Below, piece by piece: positions 2,035 through 57,552 of a stretch of DNA of 64,000 nt (positions within the stretch are counted from its first letter, which is position 1; each line of letters starts with the position of its first letter). This stretch comes from an uncultured Candidatus Saccharibacteria bacterium (lineage in GTDB: Bacteria; Patescibacteriota; Saccharimonadia; Saccharimonadales; UBA4665): the NCBI GenBank assembly GCA_964483005.1, contig CAYZZH010000001.1:23370-87369 (forward strand), given 5' to 3'. The position numbers and the translations under genes are program-made. The notes under the pieces were generated by a model. That model saw only the letters and a list, made by a program, of their open reading frames with translations. It did no database searches and was not told the origin of the DNA.

Positions 2035-3438
2035 CTATGCATAAAGTCGATCCTTTATTTCGCCAATGGCGCTACGAAGCGTGGGGTTAAGGGCAATTTC
2101 TCGCTCGATTTTTTCGACCGAATGAATGGCAGTGGTGTGGTCTTTGCGGCCAAGCTCTTGGGCAATTTTTGGAAAGCTAAGGTGAAGCTCGCTGCGCAAC
2201 AGGTGCATTGCTACTTGGCGAGGCAGTACAATGTCGCGGTCGCGCTTGGGGCTAAGCAGGTCGTCGAGACCAATGTCGTAGTATTTGGCACAACGCTCAA
2301 CGATTTGCCGGGCACTCAGGTGTTTGGGCCGGCCGCGACCATTGCCAAGTAGCCCCGTTACGGTTGCCAAGTTTGGTTCGAGCCCGCGTAATTCACACAG
2401 CGCAATAACCTGGTTAAGCGCTCCTTCGAGCTCGCGAATGTTAGACGGAAACTGGTTCGAAAGAAACTCGGTGGCGTTGTGGTCAAGCACAATGCCTTTT
2501 TCCTCTGCTTTGGACTGAATAATAGCGCAGCGCGTTTCAAAGTCGGGGTTTTGCATGTCGATACTCATGCCCCACACCAAACGACTGCGCAAGCGTTCTT
2601 CGAGGGTGGGGATTTCTATGGGGGGTTTGTCGCTGCTAATAATCATTTGTTTGTTTGCCTGGTGCAGGGCGTTAAAGGTGTGAAAAAACTCTTCCTGGAT
2701 TTTTTCTTTGCCGGCAAAAAACTGTACATCGTCGACAATAAGCACGTCGGCACTACGGTAGTAGCCGGCAAAGGCGGTGTTTTTTTTGAAACGCAGCGCG
2801 TCGACAAACTCTTGTACAAACTGCTCACTCGAAATGTACACAACGCGGGCGTTTGGTGTGCGGGCAAGCACGGCGTTACCAACTGCTTGTATAAGATGAG
2901 TTTTGCCAATCCCGACGCCGCCATAGAGAAACAGCGGGTTATATTTGGTGCCGATTTCGGCCGCCACCGCCTGACAGGCAGCGTAGGCAAGCTCGTTGCC
3001 TGCGCCAACCACAAAGTTTTCAAACGTGTAGCGTTCGTTGAGCCCCTGGCGGTACTGGTGTGTGAGAGCATTTTTGCTTGAGGGAGTTTGCATGGTAGGG
3101 GCCAGGGAAGCGCCTTGGGGTGGCGACATCGACGACGAAGATGGGGCGGCTGTTTTTGTCGCTAGTTTTGCTGAAGCGCTGGGTTGGGTGTGGATTTTAA
3201 ACACAACCTCTTTGAGGGGTAGGCTGTTTGTTTTGATCATGTCGGCAATACTTGCGCTGTACTTTTTTTCGAGCTGGTTTTTGAAAAATATGTTTGGAAC
3301 GCCTATTACCAACTGCCCGTCGGCGTGTTTGACAACGTGGGTACGGGAAAACCAGGTAACAAAGTTGGCGTGCGACAAAGAAATCTCGATGTTGCCGAGT
3401 ATGGTTTGCCACAACTGATCGCCTTGCGATGTTTGCAC
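2035..3438 (-). CDS. dnaA: Chromosomal replication initiator protein DnaA
   Basis: Track frame 2035..3573. AAA+ Walker A GGVGIGKTHL and a C-terminal DnaA-box-binding domain. I place the start at GTG 3438, preceded by AAGGAGG at 3446-3452. The 45 codons upstream look like read-through. Confidence 0.93.
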   Translation of the reverse strand: MQTSQGDQLWQTILGNIEISLSHANFVTWFSRTHVVKHADGQLVIGVPNIFFKNQLEKKYSASIADMIKTNSLPLKEVVFKIHTQPSASAKLATKTAAPSSSSMSPPQGASLAPTMQTPSSKNALTHQYRQGLNERYTFENFVVGAGNELAYAACQAVAAEIGTKYNPLFLYGGVGIGKTHLIQAVGNAVLARTPNARVVYISSEQFVQEFVDALRFKKNTAFAGYYRSADVLIVDDVQFFAGKEKIQEEFFHTFNALHQANKQMIISSDKPPIEIPTLEERLRSRLVWGMSIDMQNPDFETRCAIIQSKAEEKGIVLDHNATEFLSNQFPSNIRELEGALNQVIALCELRGLEPNLATVTGLLGNGRGRPKHLSARQIVERCAKYYDIGLDDLLSPKRDRDIVLPRQVAMHLLRSELHLSFPKIAQELGRKDHTTAIHSVEKIEREIALNPTLRSAIGEIKDRLYA

Positions 3439-3563: not shown

Positions 3564-3684
3564 TTTTCCACAATATTTTCTACAACTACCGTTCGCACAC
3601 AAAACGGGCTAAAAGGGGCAAAGTTATCCACACCCTGTAAGCGCCTCTGTTAACTTGTGGAAAAGACTGGAAAAAGGTGGATAA
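3564..3684. promoter_or_regulatory. Cluster of four DnaA boxes upstream of dnaA (oriC / dnaA autoregulation)
   Basis: TTTTCCACA 3564-3572, TTATCCACA 3624-3632 (perfect consensus), TGTGGAAAA 3656-3664, GGTGGATAA 3676-3684. Confidence 0.65.
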
Positions 3685-3720
3685 CTTTGCTACAATATCT
3701 TAGAAATAGCAAGCCTGTAG

Positions 3721-3800
3721 GCCTGGCCCACATGGACCTCCCGCCAAATTGACCCAACCGAAGGTCACCGGTAAAGTGCCCCTTTTGTCAAAAAGGCACG
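3721..3800 (-). repeat. Copy C3 of a ~95-nt structured intergenic repeat family (minus-strand orientation, pointing toward dnaA)
   Basis: The reverse complement CGTGCCTTTTTGACAAAAGGGGCACTTTACCGGTGACCTTCGGTTGG matches C2 at 35 of 43 aligned positions. Shared core GGTGACCTTCGGT (plus-strand 3757-3769). Confidence 0.6.
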
Positions 3801-4382: not shown

Positions 4383-4603
4383 CCTGTACTCACTTTTTGA
4401 CGAAAGAGGTGTGATGCTGAGCCACGTCCACTTTTTTCAACCGGAGGGGTTGCAAGTGAAGCAAAGGTGAAAAAGTGCTTGTGCACTTTTTCCCTTGCAA
4501 ACGCCTGGAGGGCGAAAAAAGAGGGCGTGGCTCAGGGTGTGACTACAAGCGACCTTCGGTTATGCTATGGCGCTTGCTCCCGCCTTTCTGACAAAAAAGT
4601 GAA
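4383..4603 (+). repeat. Copy C1 of the intergenic repeat family, interrupted by the 119-bp element at 4417-4535
   Basis: CCTGTACTCACTTTTTGACGAAAGAGGTGTGA ... GCGACCTTCGGTTATGCTATGGCGCTTGCTCCCGCCTTTCTGACAAAAAAGTGA aligns with C2 (38663-38761). Confidence 0.65.
4417..4535. mobile_element. MITE-like non-autonomous palindromic element, copy A
   Basis: Terminal inverted repeats CTGAGCCACGTCCACTTTTTT / AAAAAAGAGGGCGTGGCTCAG. Flanked by GGTGTGATG (4408-4416) and GGTGTGACT (4536-4544). About 85-90% identical to copy B over the shared ~65 nt. Confidence 0.65.
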
Positions 4604-4640
4604 TATGTGTGAAACAACTGCGGCGACCGAAGACAAACCA

Positions 4641-4669: not shown

Positions 4670-5740
4670 ATGTTTACGGAGCTTGTGGTTCAACCTATCT
4701 TTAACCTGCTGGTGCTCATATATGCGCTAATTCCGGGGCATAATTTTGGCATAGCGATTATCATCTTTACCATCGTGATTCGACTGCTTATGTGGCCATT
4801 GGTCAAAAAACAGCTGCGCCAAACAAAAATTACCCGCAAGCTGCAGCCAGAGCTCAAACGTATCAAAAAGGAGGCTGGCGGCGACAGACAGCGTGAGGGC
4901 CAGATGATGATGGAGCTGTACAAAGAGCGCGGTGTTAACCCCTTTGGCATGCTGCCGACACTGGCGGTGCAAATGGTGGTGTTGATTGGTTTGTACATAG
5001 GGCTGGTCAAGGTTATTAAAGATCCGCGGCAGATCGTCGAGTTTGCCTATGGCCCGCTGCAAAACGTTGGCTGGCTGAAGCACCTTGCGGGCAATATTGG
5101 GGCGTTTGACAATTCGCTTTTTGGGCTGATTGACCTCTCAAGGGCGGCGCTCAGCCCCGTCGGCACCTACTGGCCAGCCTTGCTGCTGGTTTTTGCGAGC
5201 GCTGGCATACAGTTTGTAACCAGCCGGCAGCTGATGCCCTCTGACGCCGACGCCCGCAAGCTGCGACACATTTTGCGTGACGCCGGGGACGGCAAGCAGG
5301 CCGATCAGGCCGAGGTAAGCGCCGCAGTTAGCCGCAGCATGCAGTATGTTATACCGGCTATGGTACTTATTTTTACCGTCAATCTTGCGGCGGCACTTAG
5401 CCTGTATTGGTTTGTAGGGGGGCTGGTTGCGTATTTTCAACAGCGTGCTGCCCTAAAAGACGAAGGGGAAGACCTAGAACAGGTCGCAACAACCAGGGGG
5501 GCAAACGCCGTCTCGGCAAAACGGTCTCTTGGCAAACCCGCAGCAGCAACAGCAGCACGGCAGCCTAAAGCCACCATCCAAACCACCCTCGCCCAAACCA
5601 CACAGCGTGTTACCACCACAACCAAGCGGGGCAGTACTGTTTCGATTTCTACTGGTGGCACAACAAAACCGGCAGCTACCGTGACAAAACCCAAACCAAA
5701 ACCAGCCAAAAAAGCAAAAACCAGGAAAAAAAGGAGGTAA
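4670..5740 (+). CDS. yidC: Membrane protein insertase YidC/Oxa1 family with a long basic C-terminal tail
   Basis: 356 aa. ...IIIFTIVIRLLMWPLVKKQLRQTKITRKLQPELKRIKKE...MELYKERGVNPFG. Position after rnpA. Confidence 0.9.
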   Translation: MFTELVVQPIFNLLVLIYALIPGHNFGIAIIIFTIVIRLLMWPLVKKQLRQTKITRKLQPELKRIKKEAGGDRQREGQMMMELYKERGVNPFGMLPTLAVQMVVLIGLYIGLVKVIKDPRQIVEFAYGPLQNVGWLKHLAGNIGAFDNSLFGLIDLSRAALSPVGTYWPALLLVFASAGIQFVTSRQLMPSDADARKLRHILRDAGDGKQADQAEVSAAVSRSMQYVIPAMVLIFTVNLAAALSLYWFVGGLVAYFQQRAALKDEGEDLEQVATTRGANAVSAKRSLGKPAAATAARQPKATIQTTLAQTTQRVTTTTKRGSTVSISTGGTTKPAATVTKPKPKPAKKAKTRKKRR

Positions 5741-24199: not shown

Positions 24200-25873
24200 C
24201 TATTTGTCGAAGCCAGAAAAGTGCGACATTTTGCTGCCAATATCATAGTCAAACACCAAAATCTGTATACCAGCTACAGTAATAGTCTTTGTAGGATTTC
24301 CAAACTGCTTTATTACCTGCGCTGGAGTACAGTTTGGAGGGGCGCTGTAAGAAGGGTCATATAAGTAAAAACTTTTCTCTGCAGGCTTGCCAAATTGACT
24401 TCCGTCGACGAGCCATTTAAATGTACGTAGCTGGCCGCCCTCACAAAGAGTCGGCAGATAGAGTGTTGTTCCTTTTGAAAGGTAGGTATTAATGTTGCCT
24501 TGCCAATATGTTGTATAGCCTTTATGAACGTGGAGGTTGTCTACTGCCCGGATGAGCGTATAATTGAGCGCATTCCCCATGTTACTACTGACGTTTGGTT
24601 GGCCTTTTACGTAACCACTCATCGTCGTAATGCTGAGATTGAAGCATGTTCCACCGAGGAGGAGTAGCACGAGTATTGCCCGGGCTAACTTATTCAGTTT
24701 TGACCCCAGCGTAAACACCAAAGCAATGATGCCACAGTATACGAAAACAACAAAGAAACGATAGTTCGACACAAGCACGAGCGTTGAGACAGTATAAACG
24801 ATGAACATAAAGAGCATGACAATACCCCAAAATATCTTCCATAACTCGGGCAGCTTCAGAGTATGAATAGTTGATACCTTGAGTCTCTGTGCACTATGCC
24901 AAATGTACCACCAGATAACAGCGACGAGAGATGCATTCATCAAATTCCCAAATGTCGACGGGGCAGTAACTTGTTTGCCAAAAAAATCTGCCCCAAAGAT
25001 TATGAGTAATCCTTGCAGGGAATTTGCAACATTGAGAAGAAGCCCATCTAGACCGACAAAGGCAGAGGGTATCTCTGCGGGTATATGAAGCCCAGCCTTC
25101 TGCCCGATATATGCAAACACGCTTGAAGATATGATGCTCGCAAAGCTTCCGACTGTAATTAATACAAGTTTTTTGCGGTCAATACGCTTTAGAGCAAAAA
25201 GCAGGACGGTAAAAATAAGTACCGGACCTAGAGTAAAAATAAGGAAATAGGGGTCACTGTATGAGACAAGCCCAACGTATAATATTGCTAAGACACTCAG
25301 AAGCTTATTCCGAACATTGCGTAACGGCATAAAATCATCAAAACATATGGCTGCCACAAGCATAAAAGTGAGCATCGCTATTCCGACCTCTAGTGTTCGC
25401 CAATCGGAGTTAAGATAATTTTGCACAAGCGGATACCCGAAACTTGCTAGCCAAATAAAGGGCAGCAGACTGGCTATATTGATGCGTAGTTTCAATTTAC
25501 GCATAAAATATACTGAAGCAAAATACGCAGATACAAAAGTCAAAATAGTAATGAACCAAGCCTCAAAAAGTATCAGAGACCTACTGGGCGCAAAAATAGA
25601 CTCAAAGAACATAAAAAACGGCGCAAGCATCACAAAGATGTCTTTTGTGCCAAAGTAAAATATCTCGCCACTGAAAGGTCTCCAGGTTCGGATTGTCTGC
25701 TGCCAGTATAGGTCATCACTGTTAAAGGGTCGTATACTGCCAATATAAATAATATTAAAAGAGAGTATGACAAGACCTATAAATAATATGATTGCGACAG
25801 GGTGTTTTTTGATTAAGGCTGTTATTCTTCGGATAAACGGTTTGTTTCGCATGTGTCGTAGGCCGGTAAGCAT
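24200..25873 (-). CDS. Polytopic membrane protein with a C-terminal extracytoplasmic domain; GT-C-type glycosyltransferase candidate
   Basis: Track ORF 24200..25900. ATG 25873 is preceded by GGAGGAG. About 12 predicted TM segments, then a ~130-aa soluble tail. Confidence 0.45.
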   Translation of the reverse strand: MLTGLRHMRNKPFIRRITALIKKHPVAIILFIGLVILSFNIIYIGSIRPFNSDDLYWQQTIRTWRPFSGEIFYFGTKDIFVMLAPFFMFFESIFAPSRSLILFEAWFITILTFVSAYFASVYFMRKLKLRINIASLLPFIWLASFGYPLVQNYLNSDWRTLEVGIAMLTFMLVAAICFDDFMPLRNVRNKLLSVLAILYVGLVSYSDPYFLIFTLGPVLIFTVLLFALKRIDRKKLVLITVGSFASIISSSVFAYIGQKAGLHIPAEIPSAFVGLDGLLLNVANSLQGLLIIFGADFFGKQVTAPSTFGNLMNASLVAVIWWYIWHSAQRLKVSTIHTLKLPELWKIFWGIVMLFMFIVYTVSTLVLVSNYRFFVVFVYCGIIALVFTLGSKLNKLARAILVLLLLGGTCFNLSITTMSGYVKGQPNVSSNMGNALNYTLIRAVDNLHVHKGYTTYWQGNINTYLSKGTTLYLPTLCEGGQLRTFKWLVDGSQFGKPAEKSFYLYDPSYSAPPNCTPAQVIKQFGNPTKTITVAGIQILVFDYDIGSKMSHFSGFDK

Positions 25874-26056
25874 GGTGGCTCCTCCCATAGAAGCATACAT
25901 GGTTTTCCGTGCTCCGTAAATCCTTCCCTACACGCACCTCTCCCCTTGTAAATGCCAGCATGGTGAAAAGCTTCGTGTGATCGGTTACGAGTGGACGTGG
26001 GCGCTCTGAAGATATTTACTTTTGTGTAGACAACAGATATTAGATAATATATACAT

Positions 26057-26623
26057 ATGATTCGTGGGCTTTTCTTTGATCTAGATGGAACGCTTGTAGA
26101 TACGCACCGCGCAAACTACGAGGCCTATAAGCATGCGCTTGGGCTTGAGGGTTTTAAAATTGACTTTGATCAGTTTAAACAAACGATTGGTATGCATGCT
26201 GGGCAGTTTCTACCCTTGCTCGCACCGGGCCTTTCCGTCAAAGGTTTTGATAGGGTCACGCAGAACAAGGCTGCGAAGTATCGAGAGATCGGCCATACGA
26301 CGACGCTCAATACGAACCTCAGGTCTTTTATAGAAAAGATGAAACCACGTATGAAAATTGCTCTGGTAACTACGGCAAAACGAGTAAACGCTGAAGCGAT
26401 CTTACAGTACCATGACCTGACCGAACTATTCGATACAGTTATTACTGCAGACGACGTAAAGGTTAGCAAGCCAGATCCTGAAGCGTACGTGCTTGCACTA
26501 GATAAAACAAAGCTACACTCTTATGAGGTGATTGCTTTTGAGGATTCGGAAACAGGCAGAAAAGCAGCGGAGAGTGCAGGTATCGCCGTAGTGGTAGTAA
26601 AGGACTTTCACGATGTCACTTAG
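26057..26623 (+). CDS. HAD-superfamily hydrolase (beta-phosphoglucomutase-like subfamily)
   Basis: 188 aa. FFDLDGTLVDT motif I, VTTAKR motif II, FEDSETGRKAAESAG motif III/IV. Confidence 0.7.
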   Translation: MIRGLFFDLDGTLVDTHRANYEAYKHALGLEGFKIDFDQFKQTIGMHAGQFLPLLAPGLSVKGFDRVTQNKAAKYREIGHTTTLNTNLRSFIEKMKPRMKIALVTTAKRVNAEAILQYHDLTELFDTVITADDVKVSKPDPEAYVLALDKTKLHSYEVIAFEDSETGRKAAESAGIAVVVVKDFHDVT

Positions 26624-28733
26624 GAAGGCTTTACTTATACCTTTGCTCGTATCTCTGGGGGTGGTGCTAGCTTTTTCCGGACAAATTCTTCATAGCTTGA
26701 AGGTGCTAAGCGAAGCGGTGCAAGTCTCATCTTCTTTCTTAAGTATGTTAATGCTGGCAGCGCTCCTTCAACTGGCTGGCCATGTAGTGCGGGCATATAA
26801 AACACGCTACATTCTTTCTCCCGTTAAGGCGTCGAGCACAAGGTTCCAGTTTCGCGCACTGACGTTGGGGTATCTCTGTAATACTGTATTTCCGTTGCGA
26901 CTCGGGGAGCTTGTGCGATCATATATAATGGCCTCGGCCGATAAGATTAGTTGGGGCCTGACGCTATCCCTGGTGCTCTTTGAAAGAGCTATTGACGCGC
27001 TACTACTATTGATTTTCGTGAGCGTCCTAGTGCTCTTTGGCTGGATAGACCCAACCAAAATTATTGCAGTGCTGATGGCGCTCGGTGTTTTTTCAGGAGG
27101 TGTATTAATATTTACCATTGCATTAGTGTATGAATGGCCACCACTTATTCGTTGCATACAACGTACGGCAGAGCTGTTTAACTCGAGGGTCAAACAGGCC
27201 GTACGCTTTAAGGCGTGGTCAGTTATATATGGACTCCAACAGGTTATGCGCCGACAATCGATTGGACGCTATGTTGCGCTTTCGTGTCTAAGCTGGGTAT
27301 TCTATGCGGGCTCTATGGTTCTTGTTGTTCTGCAATTCAACGCAATTACCATAAACACAAAAAATCTATCTATCGGAGCCGCAAGCCCATATTACGGGGT
27401 AGCGGTGCCTTCTGTTGGTCCTGCAAGTCTGGGAAGTTATTCAAAACAGGCGAACGATATCAATGCAGCGTTGCCACTATCTGAAAACGAGCGAACTGCA
27501 TTTGACCTCACAGCTTGGTTTGTGGTTGTTGCCCCAACGGCGTTCGTGGCTGTCATTCTTCTGCTAATAAAAACTAAAGAACCTCTATGGAGGCAACTAC
27601 CTAAATCATCGGCTAGGAGTGCATTGCTAGATAAGTTGGCTAGAGAGGAAGACATTAGCAAAGAAATGGAAGAATTTCTAGAGAACTATTTTGCAGGAAA
27701 TACACTTTCTAGAATTGTGCATAGATTAGAACGTGAAGGAGAGTTTAGCTTACTCAAATATTTTAAAGGTGGATCTGACGCCATTACTATTCTTGTCTCT
27801 GATAAGCAGGGGAACGTATTTGTCAAAAAAATTATCGCACTTTCATACAAAGATAGGCTAAAAGCACAGTACGAATGGTTGAAGCGACACGCTCACAAAA
27901 ATATAGTTAAAGTTGATTCCGAAAAGACGGGGAGCGACTACTATGCAATAGACATAGCGTATGATGAAAACGATGAAATGTTTTTCGACTATCTCCATCA
28001 CGCTTCTCCTGAAGACACACAACAGGTAATGATTGCTGTGTGGAAGTGTCTATCGCACACACTCTACCAACATACAGAAACAGTTACGGACTATGTTGCC
28101 CTCGATGAGTACGTGAATAAGCATGTCTGGGGTTGTTTCGAGAAGGCTGCCTTAGCGCATGCTGAACTTAAAATGGCGGTAGTGCCCCGTACCATACGCA
28201 TCAACGGCAAGCGCTATGACAACCTATCTACCATTATGAAGAAAATCATGGCGCATCCACAGGCACGTAAAGACCTTGCGACGTATGCGAAGGGCACGGA
28301 AGTGGATGGTGACATTGCGGTTGATAACATCCTGGTTTCTAAAAAAACTCGTCAAGTACGCATCATTGATCCCGCACCAGACGGTAACATTTTTACCGGA
28401 CCGGTCTTTGATTTCGGGAAAAATATGCAGTCACTGTACTGCGGATATGAGTTTTTGTTTCGCAGCAACGAAGCTGTTGTGCTGGGTGAGAACGGGGAGA
28501 TTAACTTCCAAGACCAGCGTTCGCAACAGTATGTACAGTTATGTGATTTCGTGCGACGTGAACTCGCTCCGCAGTATCTCAGTACCGGAGAGCAAAAGGC
28601 AATTATATTTCATGCTGCTGCCTTGCACATCCGTCGCCTAAAACACCAGGTGTATCAAAATCCATCAGTTGCCCTGGCTATGTATGCAGTGGGCGTAAGG
28701 ACCTTTAACGATTTTCTCAACCAATACAAATGA
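26613..28733 (+). CDS. Fusion protein: N-terminal UPF0104/LPG-synthase-TM (flippase-like) domain plus C-terminal APH/choline-kinase-like phosphotransferase domain
   Basis: 706 aa. LGYLCNTVFPLRLGELVRSYIMA in a ~320-aa multi-TM part. VDGDIAVDNILVSKKTRQVRIIDPAPD resembles the HxDxxxxN...D kinase core. Confidence 0.5.
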   Translation: MSLRKALLIPLLVSLGVVLAFSGQILHSLKVLSEAVQVSSSFLSMLMLAALLQLAGHVVRAYKTRYILSPVKASSTRFQFRALTLGYLCNTVFPLRLGELVRSYIMASADKISWGLTLSLVLFERAIDALLLLIFVSVLVLFGWIDPTKIIAVLMALGVFSGGVLIFTIALVYEWPPLIRCIQRTAELFNSRVKQAVRFKAWSVIYGLQQVMRRQSIGRYVALSCLSWVFYAGSMVLVVLQFNAITINTKNLSIGAASPYYGVAVPSVGPASLGSYSKQANDINAALPLSENERTAFDLTAWFVVVAPTAFVAVILLLIKTKEPLWRQLPKSSARSALLDKLAREEDISKEMEEFLENYFAGNTLSRIVHRLEREGEFSLLKYFKGGSDAITILVSDKQGNVFVKKIIALSYKDRLKAQYEWLKRHAHKNIVKVDSEKTGSDYYAIDIAYDENDEMFFDYLHHASPEDTQQVMIAVWKCLSHTLYQHTETVTDYVALDEYVNKHVWGCFEKAALAHAELKMAVVPRTIRINGKRYDNLSTIMKKIMAHPQARKDLATYAKGTEVDGDIAVDNILVSKKTRQVRIIDPAPDGNIFTGPVFDFGKNMQSLYCGYEFLFRSNEAVVLGENGEINFQDQRSQQYVQLCDFVRRELAPQYLSTGEQKAIIFHAAALHIRRLKHQVYQNPSVALAMYAVGVRTFNDFLNQYK

Positions 28734-38662: not shown

Positions 38663-38761
38663 CCCTGACTCACCTTCACTTTTTCGACGAAAGGGGCGTC
38701 TTGCAGGTGACCTTCGGTCGGCCTGTGGCGCTTGTTCGCCTCTTTCTTACAAAAAAGCGAG
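38663..38761 (+). repeat. Copy C2 (uninterrupted) of the ~95-nt structured intergenic repeat family
   Basis: CCCTGACTCACCTTCACTTTTTCGACGAAAGGGGCGTCTTGCAGGTGACCTTCGGTCGGCCTGTGGCGCTTGTTCGCCTCTTTCTTACAAAAAAGCGAG. Internal stems GAAAGGGGCG/CGCCTCTTTC and GGCG/CGCC. Confidence 0.65.
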
Positions 38762-38813
38762 TTCGGGTCAGGCTAAAAGCGACACAACAGTCAACAGCGC
38801 AGGCTCAAAGGCT

Positions 38814-57477: not shown

Positions 57478-57552
57478 CTGACCCATGTCCTCTTTTTTCA
57501 CCTTTGCTTCACCTACCAACCCCTCCGGTTAAAAAAAGAGGACATGGGGCAG
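57478..57552. mobile_element. MITE-like non-autonomous palindromic element, copy B (75 bp)
   Basis: CTGACCCATGTCCTCTTTTTT / AAAAAAGAGGACATGGGGCAG (20 of 21 complementary). Perfect 9-bp direct repeats GTGTTGTTT at 57469-57477 and 57553-57561. Confidence 0.7.

Follow-up and report, generated by a model that had tools for sequence, protein, structure and literature searches.

A probable family of decaying MITEs with insertion-sequence ends in a small Saccharibacteria genome

The Correia/NEMIS elements of Neisseria and the RUP elements of Streptococcus pneumoniae are bacterial MITEs derived from insertion sequences. Together with MITEAba12 of Acinetobacter baumannii, they resemble the repeat described here in being non-coding, dispersed and about 100-150 bp long. 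As in the present element, the terminal inverted repeats (TIRs) of bacterial MITEs are shared with an autonomous insertion sequence, and the whole element forms a long hairpin. Such elements are also mostly intergenic, lie in either orientation and can be nested, as is the case here. The target-site duplication (TSD) of MITEAba12 has a length of 9 bp, the same as that of the element.

The window is a stretch of 64,000 nucleotides (contig C1:23370-87369) from a Candidatus Saccharibacteria assembly of 1.198 Mb in 67 contigs, having 52% G+C. A sequence-only reading had singled out three related stretches in it, and a pairwise repeat comparison within the window confirms that these are real and related. 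Window positions 4546-4602 and 38704-38760 are 77% identical over 57 nt, and 3754-3794 is 80% complementary to 38681-38721 over 41 nt. The blocks GGTGACCTTCGGT, TGGCGC and CTTTCTnACAAAAAAG, listed as common to the copies, are present as described. The repeat is very probably a MITE family, a non-coding DNA transposon of ~107 bp, of which the window holds old, decaying relics. It is present in several copies with TIRs and TSDs, its ends match those of an insertion sequence, its orientation is random, its distribution is patchy and its copies are decayed. Mobilisation would have taken place in trans, by the transposase of that insertion sequence.

Searches with the three window copies (blastn, nhmmer) found better-preserved copies on contigs C10, C5, C32, C39, C3, C22 and C30, and a covariance model used on the whole genome added a copy on contig C33. 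The supposed three-copy repeat has 8 more copies elsewhere, 11 in total, and the family thus comprises at least 11 copies on 9 contigs of the ~1.2-Mb genome. The young copies are 103-110 bp long and have no ORF. Their consensus of ~107 bp ends in 15-bp inverted repeats, CTGACCCACAGTCAC...GTGACTGTGGGTCAG, which are perfect at both ends in the copies on contigs C5 and C32. In each of the copies on contigs C10, C39 and C3 a single end is perfect and the other has 1-3 mismatches; in the window copies the repeats are degenerate. The TIRs are followed by T-rich and A-rich inner arms and then by a central core, and the whole element folds as a single long hairpin. What had been described as a local 5' hairpin is part of this fold-back, in which the T-run pairs with the 3' A-run. 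The TGGCG..CGCC hairpin, previously counted among the common parts, is private to window copy C2, the family consensus being TGGCGCTTGCTCACCCC.

Window copy C2 is a full-length, diverged MITE at 38665-38771 on the plus strand. Its boundaries had been drawn too narrowly, omitting the degenerate TIRs. It is 85% identical to the consensus, the alignment spanning consensus positions 1-107. The left TIR (38665-38679) reads CTGACTCACCTTCAC and the right TIR (38757-38771) reads GCGAGTTCGGGTCAG; a TSD is no longer recognisable in the flanks of this copy. The conserved 58-nt core (38689-38746, plus strand) scores 70.1 bits with covariance model R1 (E = 1e-15); four of its 19 loop positions and four of its 36 stem positions have changed from the consensus. 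The z-scores for the fold of this copy are -3.4 (plus strand) and -3.6 (minus strand).

Window copy C1, delimited by consensus alignment, blastn and nhmmer, lies between rnpA and yidC at 4384-4613 on the plus strand. It is old, and a later insertion has split it into a left part (4384-4416) and a right part (4544-4613, consensus 38-106). Changes from the consensus have accumulated at 11 of 30 TIR, 9 of 36 stem and 5 of 19 loop positions. The inserted DNA is itself a MITE, 119 bp long (4417-4535, plus strand) and of another subfamily. Its termini, CTGAGCCACGTCCAC...GTGGCTCAG, are of the same class as those of its host, and its two TIRs match each other at 18 of 20 positions. Its 9-bp target duplication, GGTGTGATG (4408-4416) and GGTGTGACT (4536-4544), matches at 7 of 9, and a near-identical copy is found at contig C8:17496-17614.

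Window copy C3 (3742-3809, minus strand), in the dnaA-rpmH intergenic region, is truncated. It covers only consensus 1-66, from the left TIR to the middle of the core, with 95% identity over consensus 17-54, and homology ends within the core. The DnaA-box-like sequence TTATCCACA is located at window 3624-3632 and its complement at 3679-3687, between dnaA and this copy, which thus lies in the likely dnaA promoter or oriC-proximal region. Within the family, degradation has gone furthest in the three window copies, one being 85% identical to the consensus, one split by a MITE and one truncated.

Flanking duplications are retained by copies outside the window and have a fixed length of 9 bp. The copy on contig C10 is flanked on both sides by ATAGGGAAAG, the flanks matching at 10 of 10 positions. 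The duplications of the copies on contig C39, GCTACAT(A/G)G, and contig C3, ACAGAGCA(A/G), match at 8 of 9 positions each. The contig C10 insertion is the youngest, and the pattern of an empty site for it had no exact match in metagenome contigs. A genome-wide census was made of elements of 100-165 bp having the ends CTGACCCAC...GTGGGTCAG and at least 16 of 20 terminal bases complementary. At least 26 elements share these termini. Ten of the 26 have at least 7 of 9 flanking bases identical in strict register, and in several more the flank duplication matches at a 1-nt offset. When the register was shifted by 30 nt as a control, none of the 26 reached 7 of 9. The 26 elements fall into discrete subfamilies with unrelated cores, one of which contains the MITE nested in window copy C1. 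Within the window, elements with these termini are found at 4417-4535 and about 57478-57552. Numerous contig ends of the assembly fall in such repeats.

The absence of the element from 27 congeneric species and the nesting of one MITE within another also bear on mobility. One copy, outside the window (approximately contig C33:8202-8316), lies in frame within purL, the gene for FGAM synthase (1367 aa; contig C33:5232-9335, minus strand). It adds about 35-39 residues to PurL: QAWE|ATSVLGDSQGYASATGEPKAPRTAPLGAPNTDVAQ|TYGKPERI. PurL has two more odd segments, VILSEAVGEVERS... and VILSKAEGSSKKQEDLS..., which resemble the translated core of another MITE. Several insertion sites (contig C10 ~25000-25037, contig C39 ~4730-4745 and window 3689-3707) are at TTGCTACA..TATAG or TGCTACAAT-like sequences. 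These extended -10-like sites hint at a preference for promoter-like, A+T-rich targets.

All three window copies face a gene start 50-280 nt downstream, the fold of the element is more stable than that of shuffled sequence and its stems covary across genomes. From these points it could be a cis-regulatory 5' leader, a riboswitch-like RNA transcribed in the 5' UTR whose folding controls the downstream gene. This is now highly improbable. Although the three window copies do face a downstream gene, the family as a whole follows no such rule. Five copies, including those three, are sense, four are antisense and situated between co-directional genes, one lies between convergent genes and one is inside purL; a crude flank test on the copies of other genomes is also balanced. 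Across the family, neither the position upstream of a gene nor the orientation is constant, and the neighbouring genes are functionally unrelated. The element is likewise not conserved at orthologous loci. The core occurs in none of the 27 other species of the genus, and the ligase-like gene of the same-genus genome G023 is preceded by only ~54 bp of intergenic DNA, without the element. The corresponding region in the window has 176 bp, 107 bp of which are the element.

Folding is equally good on the two strands, with z-scores of -8.3 and -9.0 for a young copy. The check for covariation that had been proposed did reveal compensatory changes, but these are equally expected of a palindromic DNA element, both strands of which fold equally. 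Conserved positions of the loops have mutated in the three window copies, two of which are disrupted. In the old copies (window copies C2, C1 and C3 and the copy on contig C33) the unpaired conserved positions have changed as often as the stems, showing that the resident copies are not under purifying selection. The repeat is a structured, dispersed one matching no Rfam family, as had been stated. At gathering thresholds, the sole Rfam match in the whole window is a cobalamin riboswitch at another place. Permissive scans of a young copy and of a copy from a genome of another family (G037) gave only chance-level miRNA and snoRNA matches. SRP RNA, a tRNA-derived origin for UAGCUCA, the hammerhead, twister, pistol and hatchet ribozymes, integron attC sites and IS200/IS605 ends had also been considered, and were dropped as their defining motifs are absent from the sequence. 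The copies end like an insertion sequence and are flanked by TSDs, and those elsewhere in the genome show no positional or orientation bias. On the terms set by the sequence-only reading itself, the idea of a gene-directed leader or riboswitch is thus largely refuted.

The insertion sequence was found among relatives. A DNA search of 40 related genomes detected no full copy of the element, but 25-nt matches to its end were present in two genomes of the same genus, G023 and G014. The first 25 nt at the left end of the MITE match the right end of the insertion sequence at 24 of 25 positions. In G023 the insertion sequence is 1164 bp long, with the TIR CTGACCCACACTCACTTTTTT, which has one mismatch to the 15-bp TIR of the MITE, the direct repeat (g)ccgaacgac and an ORF of 355 aa. 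G023 has five copies, and G014 has fragments at contig ends. In a genome of another family (G049) the insertion sequence has identical ends and a transposase that is 74% identical. A scan of GTDB genomes gave 14 loci in Candidatus Saccharibacteria/Saccharimonadales MAGs and one in a genome labelled Nomurabacteria. Where the contig allows, the end motif is seen at both ends in about 10 further Saccharibacteria/Saccharimonadales MAG loci. The MITE ends are thus shared with an autonomous insertion sequence of ~1.15 kb, having CTGACCCACNNNCACTTTT at both ends, in relatives. A MITE of 150 bp with the same ends and another core adjoins the G023 insertion sequence. There, at ~1157573-1158896 of contig C1 of G023 (L006 362-1685), and at a further locus (L098 318-1595), the order is TSD-IS-TSD-MITE-TSD, with one target repeat between the two elements. 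The two genomes having this arrangement are unrelated.

The 355-aa transposase matches Pfam DDE_Tnp_1 (PF01609) with 25.9 bits, against a cut-off of 23, and a YREK signature (Y-x2-R-x3-E-x6-K) can be read in it as YAERFEIEEAFKDVK. Its best NCBIfam model is transpos_IS4_2, which aligns over nearly the full length with 86.2 bits, below the cut-off of 152; the IS701 models are weaker. The only relatives in the PDB are chains of the Tn5 transposase, the match being weak (E = 0.035). As it lies under the curated IS4 cut-off, the transposase is called IS4-like rather than a proven member of IS4.

No autonomous partner was found in the genome of the window itself. A tblastn search of the assembly with the partner transposase detected neither a homologue nor fragments at contig ends. 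In blastn searches for the insertion-sequence ends, only the TIRs inside the MITEs were recovered and the interior was absent. Analysis of the contig ends revealed many repeat families and zero insertion-sequence fragments. The PF01609 proteins of this genome were examined as possible partners and rejected, as they belong to two unrelated insertion sequences with other ends. Two insertion sequences other than the partner are located on contig C25 (~50-1330) and contig C8 (~25990-27180), with end types GCTCACCTTACGCAAA and CTAGCTCGACTTACGCAAAA; the one on contig C25 is a pseudogene, because it has in-frame TGA and TAG stops. In the order, the insertion sequence occurs in 9 of 301 genomes, the core in 28 and both in 2, a co-occurrence not beyond chance over the 301 genomes.

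The core is formed by three stacked helices, has an asymmetric internal loop and is capped by a GACC-UUC-GGUC hairpin. The covariance model of the core, built on 8 sequences, finds it in 28 of 301 genomes of the order. These genomes, which hold 1-17 copies each, belong to 26 genera and about 17 families. Outside the order only two genomes match in a phylum-wide sample of 401, both weakly. In genomes of other families these inner 58 nt are carried between other outer arms, and the core is not contained in the partner insertion sequence. Among 65 distinct cores 93% of the cells are paired, 13 of 18 pairs have changed on both sides and 201 cells are compensatory. The covariation score is 0.452 compared with 0.167 for shuffled alignments; 0 of 500 shuffles scored as high, and the signal collapses when the partners are slid. 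The bases C-R-C-U-Y-U-A on the 5' side and U-G-G-C-G-Y-U-W-G-C-Y-N-A on the 3' side are unpaired and near-invariant, although the covariance-model search itself selects for such "invariant" bases, which is an ascertainment bias. In G048 (L026) and G102 (L037), which are of different families, the core lies at ~1440-1560, directly after the stop codon of the same gene, whose C-terminus ...EAKALAKLRKHKD... resembles a sigma-70 factor. An old insertion common to both genomes, or coincidence, could account for this.

The spread of the core through 28 of 301 genomes and about 17 families, its strong covariation, its near-invariant unpaired bases, its persistence between differing arms, its absence from the partner and its near absence outside the order may point to a functional structured nucleic acid, a passenger or driver of the transposon that is selected during spread and not in each resident copy. 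It might act as a small RNA or a ribozyme, bind protein as an RNA, or serve as a site in single-stranded DNA. Such a function is compatible with the MITE reading, and we consider it possible but rather unlikely. The near-invariance is favoured by the model search; G·U (38) and A·C (40) are equally frequent, indicating no RNA strand; and the orientation relative to genes is random. A consensus scan and reading of the sequence gave no internal promoter or terminator in the element, and the loops decay in old resident copies. Compensatory changes in palindromes can, moreover, come from template switching without selection.

In genome G301 the copies have CTGA(C/A)C... ends and 9-bp duplications. 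As many as 7 of 15 end positions vary from copy to copy, yet in 10 of 12 copies the two ends are perfectly complementary to each other. In some other genomes the arms of the core do not obviously resemble CTGACCCAC, and there is no clear target duplication. It is conceivable, if somewhat doubtful, that the core is a Saccharimonadales-specific structured module that is needed for, or promotes, the spread of the hairpins carrying it, possibly by folding as a single-stranded intermediate, by offering a binding site or by acting as a small RNA. If so, the complementary, copy-specific arms would be regenerated or corrected on the hairpin in each round.

Arms that are complementary within a copy and differ between copies, in an element that is one long hairpin, might also suggest a REP/REPIN-like or fold-back palindrome, spread not by a DDE enzyme but by a Y1/HUH transposase of the RAYT type or by hairpin-primed copying. 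The genome encodes six diverged Y1_Tnp-like proteins, each flanked by short palindromes. The genes lie outside the window, at contigs C4:~26390-26617, C27:~2954-3178, C1:12047-12271, C2:11242-11466, C1:3039-3275 and C9:33096-33320. These six Y1/HUH (PF01797) paralogues of ~210 aa, each with its own perfect palindromes (GGACTGTCC, AAAGGCCTGGCCTTT, AAGGATCTGATCCTT), present a RAYT/REP-like arrangement. Nevertheless, spread by such an enzyme is very unlikely. The 9-bp target duplications are not a product of Y1 transposition, a DDE insertion sequence has identical termini, and the element is ~107 bp long, as opposed to 20-40 nt for a REP. The palindromes beside the Y1 genes (GGACTGTCC, GGCCTGGCC, GGATCTGATCC) are unlike the core or the termini; REP or REPIN sequences would be expected to be identical to the palindromes flanking a RAYT gene and to lack a TSD.

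There is likewise only a slim chance that the element acts as a mobile promoter or terminator module, supplying its neighbours with a -35 box, the TTGACA of the left arm, or with a hairpin that resembles a terminator. A perfect TTGACA is present in the left arm of the consensus from this genome and is inherited from the right end of the insertion sequence, where TACAGT stands 17 nt further on, ahead of the transposase gene. Several insertions, furthermore, are at TGnTAnAnT-like promoter sequences. The box, however, is conserved neither in the G301 copies nor in other genomes, the element has no matching -10 box, no U-tract follows the hairpin and the orientation is random. At window copy C2, a consensus scan for promoters and terminators gave no promoter, and terminator-like matches only on the opposite strand at the edge of the element.

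The MITE reading leads to the following proposed history. The element consists of two TIRs of 15-21 bp (CTGACCCAC-AGT-CAC-TTTTT), A/T-rich inner arms and a folded core of 58 nt. Lacking its own transposase, it would use the ends that it has in common with the 1.15-kb IS4/Tn5-like insertion sequence of Saccharimonadales. Cleavage by the DDE transposase may take place at the CTG ends, and insertion through a cut staggered by 9 bp would then yield the observed 9-bp target duplications. The family was probably acquired by this genome after the split from the sequenced congeners and then amplified to about 11 copies, which would have entered intergenic DNA in either orientation and, once, purL in frame. 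The insertion sequence was apparently either lost from this genome or never present in it, and the copies may now be fossils in neutral decay. The three window copies are probably among the oldest, and their place upstream of dnaA, yidC and the O-antigen-ligase-like gene would be a coincidence. The arms of the G301 copies, private to each copy and yet self-complementary, count against this mechanism, since simple decay of TIRs does not predict them. The lack of a transposase in the assembly itself, the rarity of genomes having both the insertion sequence and the core, the lack of an empty site in the metagenome contigs, the genomes in which the core has dissimilar arms and no clear duplication, and the transposase score below the NCBIfam IS4 cut-off are further points against it.

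For annotation, the window copies should be masked as relics of a mobile element, not studied further for any regulation of dnaA, yidC or the ligase-like gene. The family is of a known kind, MITE, and its novelty is only that of a further member, from hosts in which such elements had not been described; a literature search on MITEs or palindromic elements in Saccharibacteria or CPR found no relevant description. The tiny Saccharibacteria genome is nonetheless dense in hairpin repeats. The family offers a concrete, testable mechanism of mobilisation, by an IS4/Tn5-like insertion sequence that has the same ends and the same 9-bp duplications. The residual interest is in the order-wide structured core and in the self-complementary, copy-specific arms. 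With its covarying stems and near-invariant loops, the core is a candidate for testing whether spread needs a folded core. Were it to promote spread, the family would link Saccharibacteria hairpins that have a conserved tip and private arms to a DDE (IS4-like) transposase and 9-bp TSDs.

REP/REPIN sequences, which depend on RAYT (Y1/HUH) enzymes, resemble the element in being dispersed, hairpin-forming repeats, and the genome does have palindrome-flanked Y1_Tnp-like genes. Unlike them, the element has TSDs, a length of ~107 bp and DDE-type termini, and it is unrelated to the palindromes adjoining the Y1 genes.

The partner insertion sequence shares with the IS4 family (IS50/Tn5, IS10/Tn10) the DDE_Tnp_1 domain, the YREK signature and the 9-bp target duplication. 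Its ends begin with CTGAC, as does the outside end of IS50 (CTGACTCTTATACACAAGT). It differs from Tn5 in its shorter transposase (355 aa versus 477) and in the size of the element, only about 1.15 kb, and from IS4 members in that the transposase fails the NCBIfam IS4 equivalog cut-off and has a weak PDB match.

The Rickettsia palindromic elements (RPEs), reportedly described by Ogata et al. in 2000, are comparable in another respect. They too are palindromes of ~100-150 bp that have proliferated in the small genome of a host-dependent bacterium, and they are found both in intergenic DNA and in frame inside essential genes, as the element is in purL. The density of repeats in the present genome is a further reminder of them. 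Unlike RPEs, the element has clear TIRs, 9-bp TSDs and an identifiable DDE insertion-sequence partner, and only 1 of its 11 copies is intragenic.

The element departs from the DDE-derived bacterial MITEs in three ways. Its partner insertion sequence is not in the same genome, and its host is a Saccharibacteria (CPR) bacterium with a 1.2-Mb genome. Across genomes, furthermore, it is the inner core of the element, rather than its ends, that is conserved, and its arms covary.
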